A DNA stretch of 61,320 nucleotides from Candidatus Sericytochromatia bacterium (GTDB lineage Bacteria; Cyanobacteriota; Sericytochromatia; S15B-MN24; JAQBPE01). Location: NCBI GenBank assembly GCA_040400605.1, contig JBBAPZ010000014.1, positions 22,752-84,071 on the forward strand, read 5' to 3'. The notes under the pieces were generated by a model. It made no database searches. It saw only the letters and a program-made list of their open reading frames with translations, and was not told the origin of the DNA. Shown piece by piece: positions 20,361-55,900 of this stretch. A program made the translations under genes and the position numbers. The stretch's first letter is position 1, and each line of letters begins with the position of its first letter.

Positions 20361-20486
20361 CCATCAGATTGACTGATTGTTCGCTAACATTCGTTGTGAC
20401 CATGCCGCGTGCAACACCCGAAAACCGTCTGTTTACTCTTGCGTCTTGTTCTGATGGTCAGCATCCGATCAGTGAAATTGATTGTT
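20361..20486. repeat. ~126-bp non-coding duplicated element B, copy 2
   Basis: Near-colinear match to 18923-19050. Confidence 0.85.
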
Positions 20487-20562
20487 CCCAATCATGGTTC
20501 TACTTCTGTGCATTTGGGTAAGCAATAACCGTCACGTACGCGCTGTGGAGACCAAATTCCTG

Positions 20563-21471
20563 ATGAATGTTACTGTTGTGTTGAATCACCGGTTGCCGTT
20601 ATGCATTTTAGGCACAGCACTTTTGCTTGGTTGTCAGACACCTGCGGCGCCCCGTGGAACGCCAGGCAGCCAAAATGGGGCGCTTCTTGAGCCAAGCTCG
20701 GGTTCCGTCGCCGTCGGCAGCGACCGTCTGATCGCAAACGGTGGCGGAAATTTTAATGCCACCGACAGCAGCAACCAGATTACCGCTTCCAGTGTTGCGC
20801 GAAAGCTGCGGGGCCGTTTGCAGGTGCCTGCGGGCCTAATTGCGCAAGGCGGCGCCAACTTGATTGCACAAGGTGGTGGCAACATCGTGGCGCAGGGTGG
20901 TGCCAACCTTGCCGTGCAGGCTGTGGGTGCATCAAGCGCTGTCAGCGCACCCGGCTTTGGCTTGATGCAAGAGGCGCTGGTGCCGCTGGCGCAAACACCA
21001 TTGGCTGACGTGGAGGTTTTTGTTGCCGATGCATCCGGCAAGCCGGAACGCTTGGCTGGTGACACCGAGGTGGTCGCACGGACGGACGCAGATGGTCAGT
21101 TTACCTTGACATGGAGCAAGTCGGCGCCTGTCATGGTGATTGCCCGCTTACAAAACACCAAGGGCGAATCCGTGTTTTGGCGCACCATTTCGCGCAGCGA
21201 CACAAAAGAAGATAACGCGTTTCAGTTTGACGCAGCCAGCGCTTGCGTCACTGTCGCTGCGTTAAAGGATCAGACTGCCGTTCCGGCTGGTTTCGCGTTG
21301 GATGCATTCGTGACGGCGACGCAGGCATTGAGGCCACAGCTCTATGCTGGCAAGACCCCCAAGTGGAGTGATCAACAAGCCATTTTGAGCTTCATGACCC
21401 AACAGGAGCAAGCATCGCCAGCGCTAAGTGAAGCTTTGAACCGCGTCAGAAGCAGCCTCGAAGTCAAATAA
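20563..21471 (+). CDS. Lipoprotein with LIAQGGAN-type octapeptide repeats and an Ig-like domain
   Basis: Lipobox LLGC; LIAQGGAN-LIAQGGGN-IVAQGGAN; RTDADGQF. Confidence 0.8.
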   Translation: MNVTVVLNHRLPLCILGTALLLGCQTPAAPRGTPGSQNGALLEPSSGSVAVGSDRLIANGGGNFNATDSSNQITASSVARKLRGRLQVPAGLIAQGGANLIAQGGGNIVAQGGANLAVQAVGASSAVSAPGFGLMQEALVPLAQTPLADVEVFVADASGKPERLAGDTEVVARTDADGQFTLTWSKSAPVMVIARLQNTKGESVFWRTISRSDTKEDNAFQFDAASACVTVAALKDQTAVPAGFALDAFVTATQALRPQLYAGKTPKWSDQQAILSFMTQQEQASPALSEALNRVRSSLEVK

Positions 21472-25140: not shown

Positions 25141-26139
25141 ATGGCTGGCATGCGCACATTGACCACACCTTTGCCGCTCATCGAAGCCCGGCAAGTCCGC
25201 AAGGGACCGTGTCGAATTGTGTTGGAGGGCCAGCCTTACGTGGTCTGGCATACAGGCGATCGCTTTGTCGCAGCCAGCGCAGTGTGTCCCCACCGCGGCG
25301 CAGACCTTTCCACCGGTCAGGTGCATGATGGATGTTTACGATGCCCCTACCACGGCTGGACCGTGGCGGCGAACGGACGCCTGTTCAGCCCCTTCGAGGC
25401 CAAAGAAAAAGGCCACCACACCGTATATCCCCTCACCGAGCGCTTCGGGTTACTGTGGCTCAATGGCGATGACGCCCACTTCGAAGCCCTGGAACGCCAC
25501 GGGGGCGAATACTTTGGAACCCTGCGCTTTGCGTTTGATTCTCCTTTGCACATCACCGTGGATGGTTTTTGCGATGGTGCCCACGTCCCCTATGTGCACG
25601 CACGCAACGGGGCCTCCCCCGCACAAGTGCCCAACATCCGCTTCAAATGGGAAGAGGACGATAACAGCGTCACCCTTTCCTATGACTACGCGCAACGCAG
25701 CAACACCTTGATGAGCCTGCTCCACCTGTTTCGGACGACCCGATGGTCGACCAAAGCCATCCTGACTTTTCACCCCATACGGGTGCAGTACAGCATTTAC
25801 TGGTACCTGCCGCACTCGGAACGAATCCTCAACGGCATCAACGGCAACACGTATTACTTCTATCCTGCGGAACCCGGACGCACCGTGGCCATCTGCCTCA
25901 TGTTTCACCGTGGCTTACCACTGATGCTGCGCGTCATCAAACCCATTTTCCGGATCATGCTGGCCCGGTTGACCCGGGACTTGATGGCCGAAGACCTCGC
26001 GATGGCCTCGCGCATCCTCGCAACCGACGAACACTTCACAGGTGCACGACTCGAAAGTTTTGACGCCCCGGTGGTGCGGGTGCGCAAACGCCTCCTCCAA
26101 ACAACCGAGTTTAAAGACTGGCATCACCCGCGATGTTGA
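25141..26139 (+). CDS. Rieske non-heme iron oxygenase (VanA/PrnD-like), copy 1
   Basis: CPHRG...CPYHGW; DGAHVPYVH; C-terminal AEDL. Confidence 0.9.
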   Translation: MAGMRTLTTPLPLIEARQVRKGPCRIVLEGQPYVVWHTGDRFVAASAVCPHRGADLSTGQVHDGCLRCPYHGWTVAANGRLFSPFEAKEKGHHTVYPLTERFGLLWLNGDDAHFEALERHGGEYFGTLRFAFDSPLHITVDGFCDGAHVPYVHARNGASPAQVPNIRFKWEEDDNSVTLSYDYAQRSNTLMSLLHLFRTTRWSTKAILTFHPIRVQYSIYWYLPHSERILNGINGNTYYFYPAEPGRTVAICLMFHRGLPLMLRVIKPIFRIMLARLTRDLMAEDLAMASRILATDEHFTGARLESFDAPVVRVRKRLLQTTEFKDWHHPRC

Positions 26140-26211: not shown

Positions 26212-27219
26212 TCAAAGGTTGTCGTTGGCCATCTTGAGGTAGTCACGCCAAGCCCGGGTGCGGATTCGCACCACGGGGAGATCGTATGGCTCCAGTTGTT
26301 GGCTGGCATACTGTCGCGGGATGTCACGGATGCGCGCGTAAAAGCGTTCGTCTTCCAGTATCTGGTTGCGGGTTAGCCGAGCGGTTATCAGGCGCAGCAA
26401 CGGGTGCAAGACTGTGGGGTACGCCGTGAAGCGCCCGAAGCTAAAGGCGTGAAAGCGCGTGCGCTCATCACCCATCGGCGCGATGTAATACACATGGTGG
26501 GTTTCAACCTGTACGGCCTCGGGCTGCCCGGTGATGAACCACTTGGAGTGATAAACCATCCGGATGGGATCGAAGTGCGTTTGCCAGCAGATGTCCCACG
26601 TCAATGACAGCACGGGCATCCCCGGCAACAGTGCGGATAGCCCATGAAACAACAGATGCTTCCGCTGCGGACCTTGGTAATGGATGTCGATATGGGTTGG
26701 ATGTTCTATCCAGTCAAAGACGATGGCGTCCAGTTCGGAGGGGGTCGGGCCGGTGACGCGATGAACGAAGGGGGTGTGCGAGCCTTCGTTGAAGTTATCC
26801 AATACGACGTGGAAAGGGGCGGAAAGCGTGTAACCCGCGCTGCCGCAATACTGGAAGCCTGGTGGTGGGGTGAGATCAACCGGCCCGTTCCCGATGAGCC
26901 ACGCATAACCCGCATGCGCCTCGATGCGATAGGGTTCAAACGCGCAACGTGTTTGTGTGACTCCGCGCGCATCACATACCTGTCCTGCGGCACTGATGCG
27001 CCAGCCATGATAAGGACAGGTCAAGACACCGGGGCTCTGGCCCTGAGATGCGTGAACCAAAGCTGTACCACGGTGTGGGCAGCGGGCTGGAAAACCGAGG
27101 ATCTCCCGTCCACGACGCTGAAGCACCAATGATTCATGGCCGACAGCAACCGAAACAAGTCGCCCTTGTTTTAACTGTGCGAGGGGCAGCAGCGGCTGCG
27201 TGAAATCCAGCAGACTCAT
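26212..27219 (-). CDS. Rieske non-heme iron oxygenase, copy 2
   Basis: CPHRG...CPYHGW; NFNEGSHTPFVH; LEDE; ATG overlaps the stop of the CarA-like gene (ATGA). Confidence 0.9.
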   Translation of the reverse strand: MSLLDFTQPLLPLAQLKQGRLVSVAVGHESLVLQRRGREILGFPARCPHRGTALVHASQGQSPGVLTCPYHGWRISAAGQVCDARGVTQTRCAFEPYRIEAHAGYAWLIGNGPVDLTPPPGFQYCGSAGYTLSAPFHVVLDNFNEGSHTPFVHRVTGPTPSELDAIVFDWIEHPTHIDIHYQGPQRKHLLFHGLSALLPGMPVLSLTWDICWQTHFDPIRMVYHSKWFITGQPEAVQVETHHVYYIAPMGDERTRFHAFSFGRFTAYPTVLHPLLRLITARLTRNQILEDERFYARIRDIPRQYASQQLEPYDLPVVRIRTRAWRDYLKMANDNL

Positions 27220-28559
27220 CCAGCCAAACCTCGCATCACGCCAGTTTGCAGGCGCCCAAGGGCAGCCTGGCTCTTGCAGGGATAAGCATAGGGGTCGTGC
27301 TGCCCCAAATGACGACTCAGAAGCTGATTGACCCCCGTTCCAATCGACATCCCGAGTTTGGGACGATAGGCGTGTTCTCTTAGCAGCCAGCCCCGCTGAA
27401 CGGCGGTCGCGCGCAGGATTGCCTTTTCGTTGGCTCCTTGTGTTTGCATCGCGGTTGGAATGCGCATGGCAGCCAGCATCACGGCCGGGTGCCAGTACAG
27501 GTGCACTTGCTGGATCCCGAGTGCCCACAGCGCGAATGGCGCTAACTCCATGGACCACCGCGTGCGCTCGATGAGGCCTGCGGTGTCATCGACCCCAACA
27601 GCAGCCAGATAGGCGGCTTGCCCCAGCATACCGCCAAAAAGCAGGTCTGAGCCGTAACCGGTCACCACTTGTTGGATGGCGCCATCGGTGCCTCGGGCGA
27701 GTGCGAGCACCTGAAGGGCAATTTCAGCAGCCATGCCATCCACAATCTCACAGGCATCAATGACCTGCGACCAAAGCTCACCAATTGCCTCATCATCCAA
27801 ATGAACGCAATGATGTGCGACGTTTAGGTGTGTGGCCAGCGCAAGCGCGTCCGTAAATTCGTTCCCCAGGCGCGTACCAAGCGTGTAGACCGAAAAAGCT
27901 GACAGGCGGCGAGCGAGCAAGGCCGTGGCAACGGATGAATCAATACCACCCGACAACCAAGCCCCCACGGCTTGATCCAAGTCAAAAGCGGCGGCTGACG
28001 TCTCCAGGGCGTCACCCAAGGCGCCAAGGGCTTCCAAGCGGGTCATGGTGTCTTCGCTTGGTGTCAGCGGTGGCAACAAATTGGCATTTAACTCACGGAC
28101 GATGTTTTGATACGGTGAATAAGTGCGATCGCGCCGTTCGATCGCCAAAATCTGGCTGTCGGGCTTCCAGTGGGGACGAAACCCTGCGATCGCACCAAAC
28201 GCCTTGGCCTCCGGCGCCCAGGCGCGATACCCCGGCCCATCATGGCGCCACAACGGCACCTGCCCCAAAGGATCCGTGCTCAAGCGCTGGCCGTCCATGC
28301 TCATTTCGACACAAGCCCAAGCCACGTGGGGGGCTGTGCGCCCATCTGGTGAAAAGATGACACGATGCGCCGTATGCGCGTCACCAGGGTGACCAAGCCG
28401 GGTGTGATACAAGCGCCGATCACCCACCGTCACGACATGCAGGGGCCCCACATAAGGACAAAGCCTGCGCTTCAGCGCCGCTTCATCAACAAAGGGCCAA
28501 TCTTCGCCCTCGCGGGCAATCAGAAGAAAAGGCATGGCTTTGCTACCAAACGATGACAC
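27216..28559 (-). CDS. carA: Carbapenam-3-carboxylate synthase / beta-lactam synthetase homologue (AsnB superfamily)
   Basis: No N-terminal Cys; LSGGIDSS, GT-x-L-x-NEF, EIVDGMAAEI, TGYGSDLLFGG, RTRWSME, RPKLG...VNQ match recalled Pectobacterium CarA motifs. Confidence 0.85.
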   Translation of the reverse strand: MSSFGSKAMPFLLIAREGEDWPFVDEAALKRRLCPYVGPLHVVTVGDRRLYHTRLGHPGDAHTAHRVIFSPDGRTAPHVAWACVEMSMDGQRLSTDPLGQVPLWRHDGPGYRAWAPEAKAFGAIAGFRPHWKPDSQILAIERRDRTYSPYQNIVRELNANLLPPLTPSEDTMTRLEALGALGDALETSAAAFDLDQAVGAWLSGGIDSSVATALLARRLSAFSVYTLGTRLGNEFTDALALATHLNVAHHCVHLDDEAIGELWSQVIDACEIVDGMAAEIALQVLALARGTDGAIQQVVTGYGSDLLFGGMLGQAAYLAAVGVDDTAGLIERTRWSMELAPFALWALGIQQVHLYWHPAVMLAAMRIPTAMQTQGANEKAILRATAVQRGWLLREHAYRPKLGMSIGTGVNQLLSRHLGQHDPYAYPCKSQAALGRLQTGVMRGLAG

Positions 28560-28922
28560 ATCTTTTGCTCACCTCAAGCGCCGTGGCGTCGAAACCCCAG
28601 AAAGTAACACATCACTTACATATCACCATTTAGCTTGGCAGCGTGGAGGCAATCAGATAACGGATGCCTATATTTAATCTAATCCAACGTTTGGCCATCA
28701 ATCATGCGTGTCTACTTAAGCGACACGTGCACCAAAAACCCAATGTTTCATCGCTGGCTTACATTGTTCGTATGCGGGTTACCGGAATTTGCTCAAGGTT
28801 GATTATATGGAAAAATCCGGAAACTGTTTCTTAAGTGATCACACATGGGCCACCAATCCAAGGTTTTCTGCATAACGGATGGCAGTCAAACCTGATTTGA
28901 CCATCCATCCCAGACAACACAC

Positions 28923-30407
28923 TCATCCACGCAATTCCACGTCATCGTGCAGGCGGGATTTGAGCACCTTGCCGAGCGAACTGCGCGGCAGCCGTTCGTG
29001 TACCACCACCCGCGCGGGCACCTTAAAGTCAGACAGTTGCGATCGCACGTGGGCCACGATGCGTTCACAAACCGGATCATCTCCCACCTCACGCGACCCA
29101 GGCGTCAACTCGACATGCAAAACCGGCACCTCCCCACGCAAGGGGTCCGCCATCGGAACAACCGCGCATAGCGCCACTTCCGGCAACTGTGCGATGGTCC
29201 GTTCGATCTCGATCGGATACACCTTTTGTCCCGCGACCGTGATCACATCATTCAGCCGCCCCACAATGTAAAAGCGCCCTTCGGCGTCCACCTGCACACA
29301 ATCTTGCGTGTACAACTCACCGTCAATCAGGCGCTCAGCGGTGCCTGCCGCATCAACAAAGTACCGCGAAAACATGGCCTCTCCGCTCACAATGAGCTGA
29401 CCCTGCTCATCCAGGCGCCATCGGATGCCACCAATCGGGCGGCCGATGGACGCATCGAGGGGATCGGCATGAGCCGCGAGGTGCAAGGTGATTACCCCAA
29501 TCTCCGCCAGCCCGTAACCTTGCCGGATGCGCACGTTGTATCGCGCGGCGAATTGCTGAATCGTCTCAGTGGACAGCGCGGCACTGCCGCAAAAAGGCAA
29601 GCGCAAACTTGATAAATCAACGGATCGGCCCTTATCCGTTCGTAACGCCAATTGATAAAAAGTTGGCACCGAACTGAAAAATGTTACCGCCTCCCGCGCA
29701 ATCGTCGCAAAAACCACCGCCGGGATGGCAGCCGCCGCATCGCTTAGAATCAGGCGTCCTCCGGCAAACAGTGTCGGCAACGCGAGGCAGTCAAGGCCGT
29801 GAGAATGCGTGAGCGGTACCGTGCATAACGTGACATCCTCACGCGTCAGCGCAAGCGCCGACACCAGGTTGCGCACGCGCGCAGTCACGGCTGAAAGCGT
29901 CAAAACGATGCCCTTGGGGGCCCCCGTTGAGCCAGATGAGAATTGCAACACCGCCGCATCCGCCAAATCAGGATGCGCAACCCCATAGGCGCGGGGCAAT
30001 GGCGGCGCCAGCCACGCATCGGGAGCGAGTGTGGCGATCGCCTGATCCGCCAGGGTCTCCGTCACGCCCTGTGCGCACAGAATCAACCCAGGCTCCAACC
30101 GCGCCAGCAACGCCGCCCGCTCCATCGGCCGCAAGGAAGGATCCAACGGCACGAATGGTACCCCTGCTTGCAAACAGGCCAAAGCCACCACCACCATCAC
30201 CGCACGATTATCCAAAAAGGTCACCAGCGCCACGCCCGGGCGAAGCCCCGCGTGCTGCAGGGCATCTGCCCAGGATTGAATGGCTTCGCTCAGTTCCGCG
30301 TAGCACCAGTCACGCCCCAGGTGAGATACCGCCACGCGTTGGGGCGACGCCTCCGCATGCGCGTGCACGCACGCAACGAGCGGATTGACTGGCAATCGTT
30401 CAAGCAT
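28923..30407 (-). CDS. AMP-dependent acyl-CoA/acyl-ACP ligase
   Basis: FSSGSTGAPKG, QGYGLAE, GRLNDVI, PRSSLGKVLK. Confidence 0.92.
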   Translation of the reverse strand: MLERLPVNPLVACVHAHAEASPQRVAVSHLGRDWCYAELSEAIQSWADALQHAGLRPGVALVTFLDNRAVMVVVALACLQAGVPFVPLDPSLRPMERAALLARLEPGLILCAQGVTETLADQAIATLAPDAWLAPPLPRAYGVAHPDLADAAVLQFSSGSTGAPKGIVLTLSAVTARVRNLVSALALTREDVTLCTVPLTHSHGLDCLALPTLFAGGRLILSDAAAAIPAVVFATIAREAVTFFSSVPTFYQLALRTDKGRSVDLSSLRLPFCGSAALSTETIQQFAARYNVRIRQGYGLAEIGVITLHLAAHADPLDASIGRPIGGIRWRLDEQGQLIVSGEAMFSRYFVDAAGTAERLIDGELYTQDCVQVDAEGRFYIVGRLNDVITVAGQKVYPIEIERTIAQLPEVALCAVVPMADPLRGEVPVLHVELTPGSREVGDDPVCERIVAHVRSQLSDFKVPARVVVHERLPRSSLGKVLKSRLHDDVELRG

Positions 30408-31653
30408 GCGTGGCCTCCCCTCCCGTCAAAAAGGCGGCCGGCACCTGGATCAGCCGGTGCCCCCGGTTGATGTATACCCCATCGGGCCGTGTCGGTGCTG
30501 AATCAATGAGATCCGTCGAGAGCACGGTGCTCCCGTGCGGAATCGCAAGGCCTGGCCGAAACAATAACCCGGCCCCGATGAAACAGCCCTCGCCCAGCGC
30601 ACTGCCTAGCATCCGCAACCCGGAATCAACTGGCCCGTCGGGGCCTTGCAGGATGACGGAGCGGCCGCTGGCGTTAAAGTCTGAAAAACCGCTGCCGCCC
30701 CCGACAAAACTTTCCGCCCCAATCCAGCAATTAAAAAGGGTGTCTGCGACAATCAGCGCGCCAGCCCCCACCACGCTATTGAATACATCACAACGGGTCA
30801 AGAATGCCCCGGCTTGGATGAGTGATACCTTGATCGAGGAATGTTCCCGCACGGTCACCCCATCCCCCAGCCAGGCGCCGCGGAGATGACAAAAAGCCCC
30901 GATTTCCACATCATTTCCCAACACGCATCCTTCCAGCACAGCGGTGGGGTGAATGCGACAACGATTTCCAATCCGGTTCATGCGACGCAGCACGTGCGGA
31001 TGGTGCGCCAGGCGTGTGAGCAGTTTAGCACCCAGCAGGCGCGTGAAGGGCGCCACGCGCCTTGCGGTGAATTCGCGCGCGAGAAGGCTGCCAAGCAGCA
31101 GCAAGTCGGCCCAGGTTTCAATTGCTCGCCCATAGACCGTCAGGAAGTGCAAAGTAGCCTGACAGACACCATAGGTCACGGCAGGCACCCCCACGGCCAG
31201 CGCCAGTTCCGGTGGTTGCGCAAAATCACGCGTGGGCAGTTCGCGCGTGAGATCAGCCACCGTGTGACACCAGCGCATCCGCAAAGGCCGCACGGTGGGA
31301 GACGCCTGCGCAGTTGTGAGGATCTCATGGCCGAAGGTGTCAAATCCGACGATGAATGCGTCTGGTCCACCTTGCTTTAGCGACTGCGCCACTTTCATCA
31401 TGGCAGCGTCTGAGAGCACGGCATCGGGCCATACGACAAGCGCCGGGAGATCACGAGCGGTAATGGCCTCGGGCGTTCGGGTGAGCAAAACGCCAAATCC
31501 TGCCTCGGCAAGCTGGCGGCGCAGGCGCTGATTAAGTGTTTCACCGGCCAGTGGCAACTTATCAAGCGGCGTACGAAAAGGTAGAAGGGTTGTGGGGGCG
31601 TCGATCAGGATGGCGCACAAGGAAGCACTCACGGCGACAGTATACCGAAGCAC
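30400..31653 (-). CDS. Left-handed beta-helix (hexapeptide) transferase with degenerate N-terminal nucleotidyltransferase-like region (GlmU-like architecture)
   Basis: IGNRCRIHPTAVLEGCVLGNDVEIGAFC, IGAESFVGGG, LGEGCFIGAG; overlaps the ligase start. Confidence 0.7.
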   Translation of the reverse strand: MLRYTVAVSASLCAILIDAPTTLLPFRTPLDKLPLAGETLNQRLRRQLAEAGFGVLLTRTPEAITARDLPALVVWPDAVLSDAAMMKVAQSLKQGGPDAFIVGFDTFGHEILTTAQASPTVRPLRMRWCHTVADLTRELPTRDFAQPPELALAVGVPAVTYGVCQATLHFLTVYGRAIETWADLLLLGSLLAREFTARRVAPFTRLLGAKLLTRLAHHPHVLRRMNRIGNRCRIHPTAVLEGCVLGNDVEIGAFCHLRGAWLGDGVTVREHSSIKVSLIQAGAFLTRCDVFNSVVGAGALIVADTLFNCWIGAESFVGGGSGFSDFNASGRSVILQGPDGPVDSGLRMLGSALGEGCFIGAGLLFRPGLAIPHGSTVLSTDLIDSAPTRPDGVYINRGHRLIQVPAAFLTGGEATHA

Positions 31654-31746: not shown

Positions 31747-32013
31747 CTATGCATCATTGTTTAACTCATTTAGCAAATCGCGAACGGTGTGCAACGTTTT
31801 ACCGGTTGTGGCGCCACGTTCTCCCAGATTAATGCCATAGTGCTCGTGACACCAGACCGCCATTTCGATCAGATGCAAGGAATCCAAGCCCAAATCCTCA
31901 CGCAAGCGGGCATCCAGGGTCAAGGCGACACGGCGTTGTGTGATACGCACCAATTCGCGTTCGAGCGCTTGCAGGGTGGTATCGGGTATGTGTGCGTGCC
32001 CAGAATCGGTCAT
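31747..32013 (-). CDS. Acyl carrier protein
   Basis: REDLGLDSLHLIE phosphopantetheine motif; TVRDL; 88 aa. Confidence 0.92.
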   Translation of the reverse strand: MTDSGHAHIPDTTLQALERELVRITQRRVALTLDARLREDLGLDSLHLIEMAVWCHEHYGINLGERGATTGKTLHTVRDLLNELNNDA

Positions 32014-32019
32014 AGGTGC

Positions 32020-32808
32020 TCAGTTTTTGCCCAGGATGCGCTCAAAATGCGCGTGTCCAGCCCGTTCCCGAAAGGACGCAATGTGGGCGGCAGCCGCTTC
32101 TTCGCGCACTGCGTGCAAGCTCTGGATGAGAGGCCGGTTCATCAGGCGTTTGGTCAATCGATACGGCGTGGAGGGATAAGCAACGAGTGTCTGGAGACGG
32201 GTGCGTGCCTGCGCGAGCAGTTCGCTTGGGGAAACAACCTCAGAAAGCAAGCCCAGCGCGAGGGCGTGATTCGCATCGAGTGTGTCACAACCGATGACCA
32301 GGCGTTGCATGGCGGCGCGTCCGAGCAACTCACCGAGCAAAACGGTGCCAAGCGGACAGGCGACCCCGTTGCGTAATTCTGGCATGGCGAGTTGCGCACG
32401 ATCAGTACTCACGCGCCAGTCACCTGTCAAAGCGACTTGCAACCCTTGGCCGATCGCGTGGTGATCGATCGCCACCACCACCGGCACCTCGATCCCAAGC
32501 AACACCACATACAGATCAATGATCTCAAGCAGATACGCCCGGATATCTGCGGGATGCTCAAGACGGCTCACATCTTCAAAATCACCACCAACACTGAACG
32601 CGCGATTGTCACCACCCCACAGAAGTACCCCGCGAACGGTCGAGTCCGTCTGGATGGTCAGCGCCAGATCGTGCAAAGCTCGGGTCATCACCCGTGAAAA
32701 AGGATTGGTCGCCTTGGCATGCGCCAAGGCGATGGTCAAAAGACCATCAGACAAATCCACTTTCAGGCTATCAGCTTGTTGCCAGTATGCTTGCGTCACA
32801 GCGGGCAT
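32020..32808 (-). CDS. carB: Carboxymethylproline synthase homologue (crotonase superfamily, CarB/ThnE)
   Basis: NPFSR, WGGDNRAFSVGGDF, IIDLY, MPELRNG, YP...TKR..NRP, AAHIASF...HF..ILGK: colinear with recalled CarB over the full length. Confidence 0.88.
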   Translation of the reverse strand: MPAVTQAYWQQADSLKVDLSDGLLTIALAHAKATNPFSRVMTRALHDLALTIQTDSTVRGVLLWGGDNRAFSVGGDFEDVSRLEHPADIRAYLLEIIDLYVVLLGIEVPVVVAIDHHAIGQGLQVALTGDWRVSTDRAQLAMPELRNGVACPLGTVLLGELLGRAAMQRLVIGCDTLDANHALALGLLSEVVSPSELLAQARTRLQTLVAYPSTPYRLTKRLMNRPLIQSLHAVREEAAAAHIASFRERAGHAHFERILGKN

Positions 32809-32821
32809 GGTAAAGACAGCC

Positions 32822-35077
32822 CTACTTTCTTGTCAACGACATATCGGGGGGTGTCATCACTGGCGGGAACCCTGGCAGCCAATTGTAGCGGCCGGCAACC
32901 ATCATGAAAGCTGGGACAAGGATCAACCGCACGACGGTCGCATCCAGCAAAACGCCTACCGCCAGTGATACACCAAGCATTTTCACCACAGCGAGATCAG
33001 TCAGCGAAAAGCCTGCAAAGACCAGGATCATCAAAAACGCGCCGCCTGAGATAATGCCTGCGCTACGCCCCACCCCATACCTGATGGCCTGTGCATCGGA
33101 CATGCCTGCGCGGTGTCCTTCAACCACCCGGTGCAGCAGGAAAATCTCGTAGTCCATGGATAACCCGAACACCACACAGAACAGCAGCAAGACAAGACCA
33201 GGCGGGATACCGGGCAAGGCACCACTCAAACCGATCATGCGAGCGCTCGTGTCATTGAGAAAAAGTCCGATGGTAACGCCGAGCGCGGCTGTGACCGTGA
33301 AGGCATTGGCGACCACCGCCTTGATGGGCAACAAGATCGAGCGTGTGAACGCAAAGAGCATGAGCAAGGTAATCAAAACGACCGTGCCGACGACGATGGG
33401 GCCTGCTTTGATCACCGCATCATCAATGTCGAGGGCTTGGGCTGCGGGGCCGCCAACATCAATCTGGCAGCCTGCCAATTGGGGGAAGCGGGACCAGTTT
33501 TCGTGGCGCAAGGCGCGCACCAGGTCTTTGGCTGCAAAGTTGCTGATGTTTGGGGTTGTGATAATGTCAAGGAGGAGGCGTTTGCCTTCGCGATCCACGT
33601 ACCACCGCGCAGGTTCAGGCAAAAGGCGCTTGACGCGCTCGGGACCGGCCGCCTGCGCGACTCGGATCCACAGCTTGTTGGTGCCAGACAAGGGACTGCG
33701 AATATCCCCCACCCAGGGGCGTGTGCGAAGATCCGTGATCAGCGCCGCCACGCCTTGCAGCCGTTGGGCGCTCAAGATGGCATCAGGTGCTTTGATGATC
33801 ACGCGAATGGGCGTCAACTCCGTGGCACCGGCACTGTCACTGAGCAAATGCCAGCCGCGCACGGCTTCGAGGCTCTTGGGGACTTGAGCGACTTCCGGGA
33901 AGGCCAGCAACAAGTTTCCAGCGGGCCAAGAAAGGGTCACAAGCAACACCAGCGCACCGAACAGAAAGGTTTTTGGGCGTTGCAAAACCACGCCGACCCG
34001 CGCTTCCCAGCGTGCGATGCCGGTTGCGGTAAGGGAGGGCCCCGGAAGCCATCTGGCCCGATCCAGATAGGGGCCAGCCAAAGTCGCAAGGGCCGGAAGC
34101 AGGGTCAAGCCGGCAACAACAGCCATCAATGCGACAATCATGCCACCCATGCCCAGTCCTTGTGCATCAAGCGCGGGGACCCAAAGGATGGCGGCGAGCG
34201 CCGCGGCAACGGTCAAGCCCGAAGCTGTGAGAGTGGGCGCGGTTGCAACGACGGCTTGGGTCAGGGCTTGTTGCGCGGAAGCGCCAGCCTCGCGAATTTC
34301 GCGCCAGCGACTGATGGTGAGCAAACTGTAATCGATACCCAGGCCGAGGCCTATCATCGACGCAATGTTGATGGCAAAGGCGGATAAAGGCAAAAAACAG
34401 GCGATCGCCCCCAGCAGGCCCACGGTTGCGACAACGGCGGCCATTCCAATGGCCAACGGGATCGCCGCAGCAGCCAGACTGCCGAAGATCCCAAGCAAGG
34501 CAAGCAGCATCACCGGCACGACCCGTTGCTCGCCGGCTGAGGCCTGCTGGGCGGCATATTCTGCCACATCGACGTCAAAGGCGGCCACACCGGTGGTTGT
34601 CACCGCGATTCCAGGGTGGTTGGCGCGCCACGATTGGATACGCGCCCGCACAATCGGCACCAGACGTTCGGCAGCCGCCAAGGATTGCGCGTTTAACCCA
34701 ACCAAAACGACCACCCGATCGGAGCGACTTTTTGACCACTGCATCGTGCGGCGAACGGAACTGTCCGTGCCCAACACGGTTTGCAGATCGCGCGCGGCAC
34801 CGGACAGCCCCGGCACTGGTTGATCAGGCTCCGGGTGCAGGATTACCGCAATGAATTGCGCAAAGGGTTGATCGAATTTTTCTTCGAGTGTGGCATCCAC
34901 ACGGGCTGAGATGGAGCCAGGCACGGTGCCGAAGCCGCCTTCCAGGCGATCGCCAAAGCGCGCAGCAACACCCACGGCAAAAACCAGCACCAACACCCAC
35001 ACAGCAATGGTAAGGCGCGGCCAACGTGAAGCCGCAAGCGCCATTTTGACAAGGGGAGCGTTTATATCAAGACGCAT
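32822..35077 (-). CDS. MMPL family (RND) exporter
   Basis: GLGLGIDYSL and FGLSMDYEIFLL, DATVVRLILVPA; two membrane repeats. Confidence 0.93.
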   Translation of the reverse strand: MRLDINAPLVKMALAASRWPRLTIAVWVLVLVFAVGVAARFGDRLEGGFGTVPGSISARVDATLEEKFDQPFAQFIAVILHPEPDQPVPGLSGAARDLQTVLGTDSSVRRTMQWSKSRSDRVVVLVGLNAQSLAAAERLVPIVRARIQSWRANHPGIAVTTTGVAAFDVDVAEYAAQQASAGEQRVVPVMLLALLGIFGSLAAAAIPLAIGMAAVVATVGLLGAIACFLPLSAFAINIASMIGLGLGIDYSLLTISRWREIREAGASAQQALTQAVVATAPTLTASGLTVAAALAAILWVPALDAQGLGMGGMIVALMAVVAGLTLLPALATLAGPYLDRARWLPGPSLTATGIARWEARVGVVLQRPKTFLFGALVLLVTLSWPAGNLLLAFPEVAQVPKSLEAVRGWHLLSDSAGATELTPIRVIIKAPDAILSAQRLQGVAALITDLRTRPWVGDIRSPLSGTNKLWIRVAQAAGPERVKRLLPEPARWYVDREGKRLLLDIITTPNISNFAAKDLVRALRHENWSRFPQLAGCQIDVGGPAAQALDIDDAVIKAGPIVVGTVVLITLLMLFAFTRSILLPIKAVVANAFTVTAALGVTIGLFLNDTSARMIGLSGALPGIPPGLVLLLFCVVFGLSMDYEIFLLHRVVEGHRAGMSDAQAIRYGVGRSAGIISGGAFLMILVFAGFSLTDLAVVKMLGVSLAVGVLLDATVVRLILVPAFMMVAGRYNWLPGFPPVMTPPDMSLTRK

Positions 35078-35325
35078 CGGTTCAAGACCACCTTGTTTCC
35101 AATCATATCGGCAACACATCGCGTTGTGTTCAAAACTGGGCGAACAACAACAAAAATACCAAGCAGGCCCATTGTGCTACTCAACAACATCGTTAATCTG
35201 ATCGCCAAACCATACTGTTCCGTACCTGCTGCCAATATCCGGTTCAATTCAAACATGCGGTATTTCTCGGCTTGACGACAATTTTGATCCGCAAGCAACC
35301 CGTTGTTTGTACCACTTTGTGCTCA

Positions 35326-36744
35326 TCAGCGTGCCCCGTCTTCTGGCGACGAGTGTTTTAACGCGTCGCCAAACAGTTGCGCGCCAAGATGCGACTTAAG
35401 CGCGTCACGCTGCCAAAATCCTTGCAGGTTACCGGTTTCGAGCATTTCTTGCATGGTTGGGGTATGAATCTGGCGGGTGGTTTCCCATTCGGTGCGCAGT
35501 TTGGCGCCGGGTGGGACGAGGCTATCAATGATCGCATCACTCATAATCCCGATGCGTGCACCCTCCAGCGCAAACAACCCCAAGGAGCCATGATCGCGCG
35601 GCAACGTGAACAATCCAATTCCCCCGTAACACCTGGCCAGAAGCAAACCAAGCTTGGGATGGGGATACGTGGATAAAGCCTCAACCAGTTCCAGCGATGC
35701 AAGTACGAGATCACCATCGCTCTCGCTTTGGCGCGGATCACCCCCAGGACTGTCAATCGCACTCACCAGTGGCACCCCCAAGGCCCGAAACAGGCGCATC
35801 CCATCCAGCGCCCGTCGCACCTCTTTCACACCAATCAAGTTGTCCGGATTACGCGGCGGCTGAACCAGCAAACCATACAGGCGACCGTTCAAACGACACA
35901 AAAAGGTCCGCCACCGCTTCCCACCATCCGGATATAACTCCAGCGCCGCATCCGCCATCGAAGTGAGCAATGCCGCGAGATGCCCACCCGCATCCGCTGG
36001 GCGCTCACGAGGTGGAGAGGGCAGTGCAGCATGCCCTGACTCCTTGATATCGGTTGCGAAACCTTGTGCATCACCACAAACAAAACGCAAGACCGCTTGT
36101 GCCCGCATCAGTGCTGCTTGTGGCGAATCAGCCAATTCCTGGATCAAATGATTGGTGCCAAACTGGTGACCGGCTGAAGCCCACTCCCCGTAAGGTTGCG
36201 AGCCAGCGCCAAAGAAGGCCTGGTAGGCACCGGGGCCGGTGAGGTTGATCAACGTATCCGCGGAGGCAGCGATGCGCAGATGCCCCTGGCCGAAAAAAAT
36301 CGCCCCCATCCCCAACGCCTTGCCCAAAGCGATCGTGACAAATAGACGCGTCTGCCGCAGGGCAAAGAGATCCGGTACCGCACCAAACACATCCTGAAAC
36401 AAGGTGCGCGGCTGGGTCAGCCGTACGCCGCCGGTGGCGAGGCTAAAAACCAAGGGTCGGGTGTCCTGACGCGCCACGGTGATGAACTGGCGCAAGAGCT
36501 TCAGGTTGCCGGCTGTGAAGGTGCCGCCGTGGCAGCGGGGATCAGTGAGTACCAGCCACATGCCATCAGGAATGGTGTGGGTTTTGACATTCAGGCAAAC
36601 CAGGCCGCTTGTATCGCCTTCGCACGTGTCGAGACGCTGAATGCGGGTGGCATCAGCGAGCAGGGTCTCCCACAACAAGCCTGGGACGGCATCATCGCCG
36701 ACAGTCAAGCAGGTGATGTGCAACAGTTTTGTATCGGTCGGCAA
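35326..36744 (-). CDS. Acyl-CoA carboxylase carboxyltransferase (PccB-like, divergent); start uncertain
   Basis: GGTF, TGGVRL, IDSPGG, RCYGG, IGIMS correspond to the two-domain CT motifs. Confidence 0.75.
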   Translation of the reverse strand: MPTDTKLLHITCLTVGDDAVPGLLWETLLADATRIQRLDTCEGDTSGLVCLNVKTHTIPDGMWLVLTDPRCHGGTFTAGNLKLLRQFITVARQDTRPLVFSLATGGVRLTQPRTLFQDVFGAVPDLFALRQTRLFVTIALGKALGMGAIFFGQGHLRIAASADTLINLTGPGAYQAFFGAGSQPYGEWASAGHQFGTNHLIQELADSPQAALMRAQAVLRFVCGDAQGFATDIKESGHAALPSPPRERPADAGGHLAALLTSMADAALELYPDGGKRWRTFLCRLNGRLYGLLVQPPRNPDNLIGVKEVRRALDGMRLFRALGVPLVSAIDSPGGDPRQSESDGDLVLASLELVEALSTYPHPKLGLLLARCYGGIGLFTLPRDHGSLGLFALEGARIGIMSDAIIDSLVPPGAKLRTEWETTRQIHTPTMQEMLETGNLQGFWQRDALKSHLGAQLFGDALKHSSPEDGAR

Positions 36745-46242: not shown

Positions 46243-47337
46243 TCAATCTTTTTGAAGCGCAACCGTGACGCGCTGGTGTTTGATGGGCCTTAAATCATAA
46301 ACCGCAACGCCATGCAAGGCATCGCAGGCGCTAAGCACCACCCGATTGTCGCCTAAGCTGACGACCTGGCCAAGGGTCACGCCGATCGGATTGGGACGTG
46401 TCGCGTGCGGGTCGGCGAAACAACCCCGGATTTCGGTTGTAACGACAGTATATTTGGGATCGAGTCGGTACAGCAACTCGATTTGCTGCCCTGGTTCGAG
46501 GCCCTGGAGATCACGATCATCAAAACGGGCGGGGTCGAGTTCAACCGTTACCAACGACGCGTCGGATGGCTCACTGCGCACGACCCCAACCGGCTGCAGG
46601 GTCGGTTCAACCCTTGGCGCACTGGCACTGCGCCCGAAGCCGGGTTTGGCCAGATAACGCCCACTGGGCGGCCGCAGTGTCAGTAAATCAAGCAAGGCGG
46701 GTACACTGAGCGCAGGGTCATCGAGATAACTTAAATCAAGACCTGGTGCGGATGCTTCGAACATCTGCGTACGCATTTCACCCGGGTCCACGGCGTAGAC
46801 AGACCAGCCCGGATTTTCGAGCGCGAGGGTTGCGGTGAGGTGGTCAAGGGCTGCTTTACTCGCGCCGTAACCACCCCACTCAGGATAGGAGACGGGTGAC
46901 GCATCACTGCTGACATTGATGATGCATGCATCCGGGAGCAAGTGGGGTTGCAGCGTCTGGACCAGTGCCAGCGGGGCGATCGTGTTGATGGCAAAGAGTT
47001 CCTGAAGCGCCTCAGGAGCAAGGTCCAGCAGAGTCGGACGGGGTGTGGGGCCCAAAATGGCTGCGTTGTTGATGAGAACGCTCAGGAGACCGTGTTGGTG
47101 CACACGATTGGCGATGGTCTCGCGGTGGGTGCGTTCCGCCACATCCCCGGCGATCGCATCAACGTAGCCAAATCGCGACAGTTCTATGCAGGTGGCTTCC
47201 AGTTCCGTTAATCCCCGCGCGGTGATGATCACCCGGTAGCCACGTTGGAGGAGGGCTTGAGCGATCGCGCGACCGAACCCCCGCGAAGCCCCCGTCACCA
47301 AGGCAAGCGGTGAAACATCTTGCGACCGTTTCGACAC
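46243..47337 (-). CDS. SDR oxidoreductase fused to a C-terminal TsaA/TrmO(YaeB)-like domain
   Basis: TGASRGFG, NNA, YGASK; then LQPVGVVRS...LQGLE...RPNPIGVT...DALHG.AVYDLRP. Confidence 0.85.
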   Translation of the reverse strand: MSKRSQDVSPLALVTGASRGFGRAIAQALLQRGYRVIITARGLTELEATCIELSRFGYVDAIAGDVAERTHRETIANRVHQHGLLSVLINNAAILGPTPRPTLLDLAPEALQELFAINTIAPLALVQTLQPHLLPDACIINVSSDASPVSYPEWGGYGASKAALDHLTATLALENPGWSVYAVDPGEMRTQMFEASAPGLDLSYLDDPALSVPALLDLLTLRPPSGRYLAKPGFGRSASAPRVEPTLQPVGVVRSEPSDASLVTVELDPARFDDRDLQGLEPGQQIELLYRLDPKYTVVTTEIRGCFADPHATRPNPIGVTLGQVVSLGDNRVVLSACDALHGVAVYDLRPIKHQRVTVALQKD

Positions 47338-47614
47338 GTTTTCCTCTTCACGCACAACAGAAACGAGATTGGTTCGCCACCCAATCACCAAACTGACTGT
47401 TCAAGCATAAGCCAAAAACGAAACAAAACCAAGCAACAACACCGCGAGCAAAAGTGCTTTCGTCGACGATTTATTTACCTGCGACTCGCCGAGCAAGCCA
47501 ACTTAACCAATGGAACTTTAATATCTACACGAATAAAAACAACACCCAATTCACCGCGTCGGCTCACGCAGAAAAGATAGCCCCATTGCCCGTAAATTTA
47601 AAAACCCACTCCAC

Positions 47615-52951: not shown

Positions 52952-55900
52952 TCACGCCTGGGTGCGATCGCCCCTCGCAACCGGCCAGGTGAGCGTCACA
53001 TGAGTGCCGCAGACAGGCCCGGGAGCGATCGCCACACTACCACCGTGAAGTTCCATCAGGCGCTTGACCCGCCACAAGCCGAGGCCGCTGCTGCCGCCCG
53101 GCCTCTCTGGCACGGCCACACTCGTTCCCAAACGCTCAAACGGGTCTTTCAGACGCTCGACACCCAAACCAGGACCTTCATCCATAATCGTCAGACCCAC
53201 GGTCGAATCAGTGTGCACGGCATTCAGGGTGATGCTTCCGCTCATGCTGTATTTAATGGCGTTGTCGACCACATTTTGAATCACTTGCACCATACGCCGC
53301 TCGTCCCCCCACACAGCAGGCAGTGCCTCAAATGCGGCCCGATGCCAGCACAACCGAAGGTGTTTCGCTGCCGCCAAGCCCGCCAACAGCTGCTGAACCT
53401 GCTCAACGACCGTCAGCAGCGCGGTTGGTGCGCAGTGCAGGATCAAACGTCCGCCATCCAGACATGCCGTATCGAGCATCGTGTCGACGACGAGCAAAGC
53501 CTGCTTCGTTCCCAGAGCCATTCCCGCCACCACATCGGTCAACTCCTCGCTCAATGGGCCGTACAGGTTCGCTTGCAACGCCTGCGCGCTCAGATGAATC
53601 GCGCCAAGCGGCGCGCGCAGATCATGGCCATCCGCAATGAGGCCAGCCACCCGACGCGACTCAAGGTCGAGTTGACGGGCCAAGACATGTTGTACCTCCT
53701 CAAGACGTCGCGCCTGGCTTTGATTATGTGTCGAAAGTTTCTGTGTCAACGCCTGCTGATGCAAATGGTCAAGGCAAGCAGACGCCAATGCTGCGATGAG
53801 TGGAAGCGCTGTTCGTTTGAGACGCCGCTTGCCGGTTGAAGGCACCAACAAGGCCACGAAGCCATGTAAACATTCACGACCCGTCAGGGGCACGAGGATG
53901 GTGTTCGGACAATCATCGGTCGGTATGAAGCCGTCCGCCGAGGCGTCATCAACCAGACGCGCCATCGCGGCACGACAGTGGCGCGCCAGATCACCCTGCC
54001 AAGGAGTCACCGTATCCTTGACAGATTGCACCACGCGCCATTCACCCTGTTGATTCACACTTAGCCAAGCCCCCTCAGCGGCACCGGTTTCGTCAAGCAT
54101 CCAGCGGCAGGTCACATCGGCCAACGTGTCGCTGGTTCGGGCCTCTCGCAGGCGCTGCGCGAATGAAGCAGTCACTGACGGGCTGGTGTGTCTTTGTTTG
54201 CGGCCTGATGTTTTTTTTGTTGAACCATCATCACTTAAGAGCAACTGACGACAGGGATGACGCATCAAGCGTGTGCCCATTCGGGCATTGATCCAGTTGG
54301 CTCGAAGGGTCTGACAGGCGGCGGTTTTGGCGTCGGCAAGGGTGTGTTGTCCCGTGGCGCGGAGGTGCCGAATCAACATGGCCTGCGTGCCGAGTTGCCA
54401 TTCGGGTTCGTCTTGGATGGTCGGATTGGCCAGCATGCGGATTGGATCCGCCTCAGAGGGGGTTGCAGTGGAGGCGATCGCGATGATCAACGCGACCATT
54501 TGCCCTCCGAACACCTCGTGACGTGCCTGTCGCGTGACATTCAACGCGTTGGTCCAATGTCCGATGGTTTTTTCGGGCGCGCCGTTCAAGCGGTGATACC
54601 AACCCGTCAAACGCTCCAGATGAAAGCGTGGAATCCAGGCCCCCGCCACCCGAACGCCGCGACGCAAACGCTTGAGTGCCTGAAACGCGTCAACAAAACG
54701 ACCTGAAAAAATCGCAGATTCCGCAAGCAAACACAAAATCGTCAGCCGATGCTCAGACCCTCCCAAATGGTCACCCAACACATCCGCCTCAACCGCCGCT
54801 TGCCAGGCAGCCTCAAAATCAGCGTGGTGCAAAGCAATCTGAGCCTTTGCAAGCGCGGCGACCAACCGTACCTCCGGATGCAACGCCGTCTGATCGTTGA
54901 GATGGTTTGACCGCACGGGCCGCGTTTTTTTCGGACGCTCCCCGATTTTAAGTTGGCACGCCTGCATCAATGGTGCAACGAGTTCCAGTACAAAGCGATC
55001 GCCAAGCCCTTGTGCCAGACGTCGCGCATCGCCCAACGCCGTCAACGCGGCACGCCATTGCGCGAGCGCCATCTCACAAATGCCCAGATTCAGGTACGCG
55101 AACGCTTGCTCCTGAAGCGCCTGAACTTGAACCGCATGCTGCAAGTTAACCCTGAAATGCGCCCGCGCCGCATCATAGACGCCCAAAGCGAGATAGGCGT
55201 TGCCCGTCATCATATGCACATCGTTAAGACCGAGCGCATCCCCAAGACGGGTACGCAAAAACAGCGCCTCCTGCAAAAGCGGCAAGCCATCCCGGCCCCG
55301 TTGGGCTGCGCGCAAACCGGCGTATGCAAGCGCCTCCGCCAGTGCCGCCTGCGCACCAACTTCTCTCGCCAACCCTTCCACTTCGCGGTACAGCCGTGCC
55401 GCATCGCGGTGGGCGCCGCGGTGCAATTCAAGCCGCGCCAGCGCGGACAACGCACGCAGACGGGTTTGCGACGAGACTGAATCGTGAGTCTGTGTACACG
55501 CCTCCCGCAGCAAGGCGCGGGCCTTATCGGGTCGATTGCGCATTTGATGACACTTGGCCATCGACACTTGAATACCAAGCCGCGCATCCGGGTCGGTCAT
55601 TTGAGCCAGAACCTCGGCATAATCACCGAGAGCCTGTTCCCAATCTCCGGTCAGGCGACGCGCATCTGAAGCAACGACGCGCAACGCGTGCATCAACGGC
55701 GCGTGCTCGGTCCCAGGCGTTGGGCGCTGCAAAGCCAGGGTGCAGTGTGTGATGGCAGTCAAATTGGCGCCTTGCGTCTGACACAAACGTGCCGCGCGCA
55801 GTGCCCATTCAAGGGCTTGTTGATTATCATCGCCAAGTGCAAACAAACGCGCGACGCGGTGTGCCAGTCCCAGTTCGGTCGTCGTGTCGCGATGTCTGGC

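Follow-up and report, generated by a model that had tools for sequence, protein, structure and literature searches.

A gene for a carboxymethylproline synthase (CarB) homologue in Candidatus Sericytochromatia bacterium (assembly GCA_040400605.1, contig JBBAPZ010000014.1, positions 22,752-84,071; this whole 61,320-nt stretch is called the window) raises the question of whether there are natural enzymes for substituted carboxymethylprolines. The original prediction, made by eye, was that the protein keeps the catalytic residues of CarB, that Trp79 and Met108 of the substrate pocket are replaced by Tyr and Gln, and that it may be a natural variant making such products.

Pocket residues of the CarB homologue

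The gene and its product were assigned as follows.

32020-32808, minus strand: carboxymethylproline synthase (CarB/ThnE) homologue of the Tyr79/Gln108 clade (262 aa; from alignment, fold match and tree)

The best PDB matches of the protein were CarB (2a7k, E 3e-52) and ThnE (5o34, E 2e-48), about 30 orders of magnitude better than the next crotonase (1e-20), which ruled out an ordinary enoyl-CoA hydratase. Alignment with CarB 2a7k was gapless over residues 20-261 (offset +13, 36% identity) and placed CarB W79 at Y92 (codon 32533-32535) and M108 at Q121 (codon 32446-32448), as the original prediction had it. The catalytic Glu, the Gln of the G-x-Q motif and the C-terminal His had also been placed correctly as kept: E131, Q111 and H229 of CarB correspond to E144, Q124 and H242 of the window protein, and G62 to G75. 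An AlphaFold model (pLDDT 94.9, built from 119 sequences) agreed with this placing, with an rmsd of 1.3 Å to CarB 2a81 over 232 columns in a fold-level comparison. The gapless alignment and the fold match together ruled out misalignment. The CarB-type residue set was found with its single catalytic Glu (E144), oxyanion positions 62 and 108, Q124 and H242, position 108 being Gln. By every feature testable from sequence and fold, the protein appears to belong to the carboxymethylproline synthases, and its catalysis is predicted.

To see how far the two changes extend, we analysed the best 120 of the 132 homologues below E 1e-20. In these 120, position 92 was Tyr in 106, Trp in 11 and His in three; position 121 was Gln in 115, Tyr in three and Leu in two. 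Both Tyr79 and Gln108 (CarB numbering) occurred in 101 of the best 120 which, with an identical metagenome copy, ruled out a private mutation or sequencing error. A further change in the CarB alignment, S139 to P152, was invariant as Pro in the same best 120. In the wider family, 44 representatives at 50% identity, W79 was present in 28/44 and Met108 in only 6/44, with Ile in 15/44; ThnE has Val there. Judged from these alignments, Met108 is not the family norm and position 108 is naturally variable. Because Met is so rarely kept while Trp commonly is, the informative pocket changes are the loss of Trp and the polar Gln, rather than the loss of Met as such. In a 55-row CarB tree, the Gln108 group (one row having Leu) was set apart from all other CarB types with support 100/99, and covered Myxococcota, Bdellovibrionota, Pseudomonadota, Actinomycetota and Planctomycetota besides the phylum of the window. 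The Tyr79/Gln108 pair thus reads as a clade signature and not a one-off; the idea of a natural variant stands as a clade-wide trait, and falls as something specific to this genome.

The premise that engineering CarB W79 and M108 alters alkylmalonyl-CoA acceptance and stereochemistry holds in PMC6542682 and PMC3962088, which agree on CarB engineering. CarB W79F, W79A, W79Y and W79S turn over ethylmalonyl-CoA, W79A accepts chains of up to eight carbons, (6R)-alkyl products are obtained when Ccr is coupled with CarB-W79 variants, and CarA accepts (6R)-6-ethyl-t-CMP well (PMC6542682). In the available parts of that paper, W79Y is named only for ethylmalonyl-CoA, chains longer than ethyl being reported with W79A; W79Y appears in the text but not in Supplementary Table 2, and the engineered variants listed do not include M108Q. 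The same work found that β-branched residues at position 108 steer C6 stereochemistry (PMC6542682); Gln is not β-branched. By analogy, Tyr79 would be compatible with ethylmalonyl use, and Tyr79 alone may not fit long chains. In PMC3962088, the M108 backbone amide lies in the CarB oxyanion hole, and W79 and Q111 are thought to bind the co-substrate P5C.

A separate natural pocket change was seen in Chitinophagales and a metagenome contig, where CarB homologues have Ala at W79 and keep Met108 (L034:6560-7372, L036:9986-10735 and L095:5925-6692), the natural equivalent of the engineered long-chain W79A. A PccB-like carboxyltransferase gene lies divergently beside carA-carB in L034 and L095, not in L036.

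A conserved cassette around carB

The minus strand of the window carries, in this order, genes for a carboxyltransferase, an MMPL transporter, CarB, an acyl carrier protein (ACP), a hexapeptide protein, an AMP-forming ligase, a CarA-like synthetase and a Rieske oxygenase; another Rieske gene runs towards them from the plus strand.

35326-36744, minus strand: divergent acyl-CoA carboxyltransferase (β-subunit fold)
32822-35119, minus strand: MMPL-family transporter, directly upstream of carB
31747-32013, minus strand: stand-alone acyl carrier protein with a DS phosphopantetheine site
30400-31653, minus strand: GlmU/ST0452-like hexapeptide protein (degenerate nucleotidyltransferase domain and left-handed β-helix)
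28923-30407, minus strand: acyl-CoA/ACP ligase (AMP-forming), whose pocket residue ahead of the YG motif is Gly
27216-28559, minus strand: CarA-like β-lactam (carbapenam) synthetase (best match CarA 1q15, E 6e-27)
26212-27219, minus strand: Rieske oxygenase, overlapping the stop of the CarA-like gene
25141-26139, plus strand: second Rieske oxygenase, convergent, with homologues in the carboxyltransferase-type loci L016 and L039

The CarA-like protein keeps the equivalents of CarA Y345 and E380, which we take to be the Tyr/Glu dyad, and of K443, presumably the catalytic Lys, together with an SGGxDS ATP loop (alignment to 1q15). The ATG at 28535 may be its true start. The hexapeptide protein is possibly an acyltransferase, the MMPL protein is a candidate exporter of a lipid-like product, and the Rieske oxygenase at 26212-27219 is a probable tailoring enzyme. 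A 363-base non-coding gap (28560-28922) separates the ligase and CarA-like genes in the window and in its near-identical copy L066, whereas the two genes abut in several relatives. The ligase was not assigned as a MatB-type malonate ligase, since it scored 203 against a cut-off of 558 for the NCBIfam malonyl-CoA synthase; throughout its family the HxHG motif is closely followed by an invariant Asp/Glu, and in L018, a Planctomycete locus, the ligase carries a fused carrier domain.

Three further genes of the window are described here in their own right. A 329-residue protein (20482-21471, plus strand) has no Pfam match and carries Gly-rich motif repeats near residues 125-145, of a type that we take to occur in Candidatus Sericytochromatia proteins. 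An unusual fusion (46243-47391, minus strand) joins a short-chain dehydrogenase to a C-terminal match to a TrmO-like (tRNA methyltransferase O) domain, and a 1598-residue protein (52952-57748, minus strand) combines AAA ATPase, TPR and histidine kinase domains.

Across 25 genome loci of the Gln108 clade, several of them cut by contig ends, the ACP was present in 22/25, the ligase in 19/25, the hexapeptide gene in 18/25 and the CarA-like gene in 15/25. Of 11 loci with other CarB types, none showed the ACP, the hexapeptide gene or this ligase. The conserved cassette comprises carB and the genes for the ACP, hexapeptide protein, acyl ligase and CarA-like synthetase. It is patchy and not a lineage marker, because the cluster was not found in 40 relatives or in 400 genomes sampled from the phylum of the window (E <= 1e-40). 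CarC-like genes with equivalents of H101, D103, Y165 and H251, the roles of which are described in PMC6097109, occurred in 11/25 Gln108 loci; CarC had no match in the window or in its genome (94.6% complete). Domain fusions involving CarB homologues were also seen: to a CarA-like domain in P0130 and P0132, to CarA and CarC in the triple fusion P0140, and in P0158. P0122 joins a Tyr79/Met108 CarB homologue to a fatty acyl-CoA ligase; as a Rosetta-stone link this was ruled out, since its ligase has just 26% identity and is no orthologue.

One explanation is that the changed pocket suits a different electrophile or a carrier-bound substrate, with the ligase loading an amine-bearing acid onto the ACP, or with a P6C-like cyclic imine, to give a substituted β-amino acid or a non-carbapenam bicyclic lactam. 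Consistent with this are the proposed role of W79 and Q111 in P5C binding (PMC3962088) and the lack of a conserved P5C-supply gene in the loci. Only in L016 does a pyrroline-5-carboxylate reductase gene (proC, L016:7619-8569) flank the carboxyltransferase-carB operon, which might connect it with P5C supply. In addition, the invariant Asp/Glu of the ligases could bind an amine, and the CarA-like enzymes form their own subgroup (34-43% identical to each other, above other CarA types). However, Q111, H229 and E131 are kept, the CarC-like enzymes with the epimerase Tyr in 11/25 loci point to a carbapenam, and an amino-acid oxidase for a tethered proline was not seen among the conserved neighbours. 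A different electrophile would in any case be compatible with an alkylmalonyl nucleophile, and we consider this explanation improbable.

Candidate alkylmalonyl suppliers and the return of Trp79

In most relatives, a crotonyl-CoA carboxylase/reductase (CCR) gene lies between the hexapeptide and ligase genes, a position where the window has none. The best PDB match of the cluster CCR was 4gi2 (E 1e-96), and 3/3 tested passed the TIGR01751 cut-off. The CO2-binding set of CCRs is Asn/Phe(Tyr)/Glu/His (PMC6628652); in 20 cluster CCR rows it was intact in 17, truncated in two and mismatched in one. The changes C146P/I169A/F373G open Ccr to large substrates (PMC8360864), and CinF is an octenoyl-CoA enzyme with its substrate scope given in PMC8252502. 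At this pocket triplet CinF has Pro/Ala/Gly, compared with Cys/Ile/Phe in K. setae Ccr. The 20 cluster rows had Pro/Ala/Gly in 14 (one a duplicate), Pro/Ala in two truncated rows, Thr/Ala/Gly in one and other residues in three, these last coming from two Planctomycete loci and from L086, a metagenome locus resembling them. In several genomes, the cluster CCR was a second copy alongside a housekeeping-type CCR.

Ketosynthases were found only in Planctomycete-type loci and L031. As none occurred in the non-Planctomycete Gln108 loci, CarB would be the only evident consumer of alkylmalonyl units there. The Planctomycete-type loci (L018:10721-20711, L025 and L086; Planctomycetota and a metagenome contig) combine a Tyr/Gln CarB, a ligase-ACP fusion, a PKS module, and CarA-like and CarC-like genes; the PKS module ends in a sulfotransferase in L018 and L086, and an NRPS module and a CCR are present in L025 and L086. 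These are possibly hybrid, perhaps sulfated, β-lactam pathways.

In the window, the candidate supplier is the carboxyltransferase. Profile searches matched it to 12S, PccB, AccD6 and MccB over both domains, and it has the two-domain carboxyltransferase fold with both oxyanion-hole loops. It is only ~20% identical to the canonical enzymes, and a loop that reads PGF/YLPG in the solved enzymes (canonical DxPG(F/Y)xPG, which presumably contacts biotin) is PGGDPR in all 14 rows of its family. With this low identity and altered motif, a carboxylase role appears not to be secured. The family is small (15 clusters) and is accompanied by Rieske genes wherever the context is visible. No biotin gene lies in the window cluster; elsewhere, the window genome has two biotin carboxylase domains, a PPTase and a proline dehydrogenase. 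Ligase and carboxyltransferase together have a precedent as a route to alkylmalonyl-CoA in MccB/SamR0482, one of two interchangeable routes in polyketide biosynthesis, each with an acyl ligase (PMC5187497). A second, split copy of the cluster-type carboxyltransferase was seen in L171/L173 (G065:C27), with no other cluster gene in the stretch examined.

The divergence of this enzyme allows that the CCR-bearing relatives make 6-alkyl products and the window sub-type does not, its carboxyltransferase acting in decarboxylation or editing in connection with the Rieske genes, and its CarB using the malonyl units of the cell. The constant association with Rieske genes would fit, as would the altered motif and the sole NCBIfam match, a weak one to the MmdA decarboxylase family. 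We nevertheless regard this as very unlikely, because the window CarB and ligase share Tyr/Gln and the open-pocket Gly with the CCR-type loci, and because CCR and carboxyltransferase never occurred together in 22 genomes and that of the window.

Suppliers were searched for in the 36 whole genomes behind loci L004-L039. In the 22 Tyr/Gln genomes, a CCR was linked in 14, a carboxyltransferase in seven, both in none and neither in one (L018). The CCR lay in the locus in 13 of the 14, and in the other between the genes for the hexapeptide protein and the ligase on a broken contig; the carboxyltransferase lay in the locus in four of the seven, and in three on broken contigs beside Rieske genes, two of them also beside CarA. 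The 11 genomes with other CarB types had neither supplier in the locus, no carboxyltransferase (0/11) and a CCR on another contig in 1/11. In the window genome the carboxyltransferase was present and CCR gave no match. Predicted genes for alkylmalonyl supply adjoin carB across the clade, which lends independent support to the predicted natural enzyme for substituted carboxymethylprolines, though what it makes is still a prediction.

In three actinobacterial genomes, Trp79 is combined with Gln108, and no CCR or carboxyltransferase was found (0/3). Their branch is nested within the CCR-bearing clade (support 97/91 with L085, and 100/99 for the enclosing 18 rows), so Trp returned where the CCR was lost. 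The ligase of this branch has Ile before the YG motif, compared with Gly in the other 27 aligned rows, a position that we take to floor the acyl pocket. For this reading of the ligase pocket (4-chlorobenzoate ligase Ile303) we found no supporting paper. This branch has kept the genes for the ACP, ligase and hexapeptide protein although it lacks any supplier, so they are not necessarily part of alkylmalonyl supply. Mapped onto the CarB tree, the CCR label required three changes, the carboxyltransferase label two (a single origin is possible) and the Trp reversion one. Because these are few independent events, the co-occurrence of supplier and pocket is suggestive and not statistical; a naive Fisher test on the genome counts was computed and set aside, since the genomes are related.

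An alternative is ordinary CarB specificity for a malonyl or methylmalonyl thioester. Tyr/Gln would then reflect clade history, the carboxyltransferase would boost malonyl supply or be idle, and the ligase, ACP and hexapeptide protein would acylate the finished ring or a hydroxyl. In agreement, these three genes are retained in the Trp79 branch, the hexapeptide protein has an acyltransferase-type fold, the carboxyltransferase is degenerate, Trp to Tyr is conservative, and the variable position 108 acts through its backbone amide (PMC3962088). Ordinary specificity leaves unexplained the cluster-specific CCR, a second copy with a long-chain pocket and no ketosynthase to feed, and the return of Trp79 exactly at CCR loss. 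We consider it unlikely.

Proposed early C6 alkylation compared with known pathways

The explanation that we prefer, and hold to be somewhat probable, is that the Tyr79/Gln108 CarB condenses an alkylmalonyl thioester with P5C to give a 6-alkyl-carboxymethylproline, which a CarA-like enzyme closes to a 6-alkyl carbapenam. The ligase, a member of a recognised family, would activate a fatty acid or an enoate and load it on CoA or the ACP. The thioester would then be carboxylated at C2. In most relatives this would fall to the CCR, and in the window probably to the divergent carboxyltransferase working together with a housekeeping biotin carboxylase; the genes are present and the activities predicted. 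The CarB homologue would decarboxylate the thioester in its oxyanion hole, the enolate would add to P5C from proline metabolism, and the thioester would be hydrolysed with Glu144, by extension of the mechanism established for CarB. The β-lactam would be formed by the CarA-like enzyme, followed by oxidative tailoring (two Rieske enzymes here, CarC-like enzymes or a P450 elsewhere) and, presumably, export by the MMPL protein.

Early alkylation is supported by the pocket changes combined with kept catalytic residues, the precedent of engineered W79, the co-occurrence of suppliers, and the coincidence of Trp79 return, CCR loss and ligase Gly to Ile in one nested branch. It is weakened by the window, which lacks a CCR, and by L018, which has Tyr/Gln with neither supplier. 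The CCRs of the Planctomycete loci lack the CinF set, and their product could be used by a PKS there. The naming of W79Y only for ethyl in CarB and the absence of a CarC match in the window genome also count against it. A more extended proposal, which we offer tentatively and think rather doubtful, is a widespread family of lipo-carbapenam or carbapenem pathways in myxobacteria, Bdellovibrionota and others, in which a medium- or long-chain fatty acid on a dedicated ACP is carboxylated by a CinF-type CCR or by a new, possibly biotin-independent, carboxyltransferase, and joined to P5C by the Tyr79/Gln108 CarB.

Compared with the Pectobacterium carotovorum car cluster for the simple carbapenem (CarB 2a7k/2a81), the window shares the crotonase fold, the CarA-like partner and G62/Q111/E131/H229, and many relatives share a CarC-like partner. 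It differs in W79Y, M108Q and S139P, in the added ACP, ligase, hexapeptide protein and carboxylase, and in having Rieske enzymes instead of CarC. With no CarC in the window or its genome, the simple carABC type was not matched. Complex carbapenems such as thienamycin and asparenomycin (ThnE/ThnM, ThnK/TokK) have the same first two steps and products with a C6 alkyl chain. In the thienamycin type this chain is built late by the B12 radical-SAM methylase ThnK/TokK (PMC9407657), whereas the window cluster would bring it in with the malonyl unit; no B12-dependent radical-SAM enzyme was found among the 43 window ORFs scanned. Radical-SAM genes, a glycosyltransferase or ArgJ did accompany Trp79/Ile108 carB-carA pairs in L027, L029, L031, L090 and L098 (Polyangiaceae, Bacillota and metagenomes), which makes these loci candidates for complex-carbapenem clusters from outside Streptomyces; one radical-SAM gene lies beside the Tyr/Leu locus L082.

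Closer in logic are the engineered Ccr/CarB-W79 and MatB/CarB-W79A tandems, which have the same succession of alkylmalonyl former, W79-changed carboxymethylproline synthase and CarA (PMC6542682). These are laboratory constructs without M108Q, whereas the window type is a natural conserved cassette. Polyketide supply likewise offers two routes, by CCR (CinF/RevT) or carboxyltransferase (MccB/SamR0482; PMC5187497), each with an acyl ligase, and the CinF-type Pro/Ala/Gly pocket recurs in the cluster CCRs. In contrast to polyketide supply, most of the present loci have no ketosynthase and the predicted consumer is a crotonase, and the divergence of the window carboxyltransferase far exceeds that between MccB and PccB. 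Searches of the freely accessible literature gave no account of this type of cluster.

In characterised carbapenems, the C6 side chain comes from late radical-SAM methylation, an obstacle to engineering analogues at this position (PMC6542682, PMC9407657). If early alkylation is true, it would represent a second biosynthetic logic for C6, installed from an alkylmalonyl unit, and a natural counterpart of the engineered Ccr/CarB-W79 cascade. It would provide CarB, CarA and CarC enzymes that evolved in nature for substituted substrates, with which engineered CarB and wild-type CarA give low yields, and would predict new alkylated or lipidated β-lactams in little-studied bacteria.
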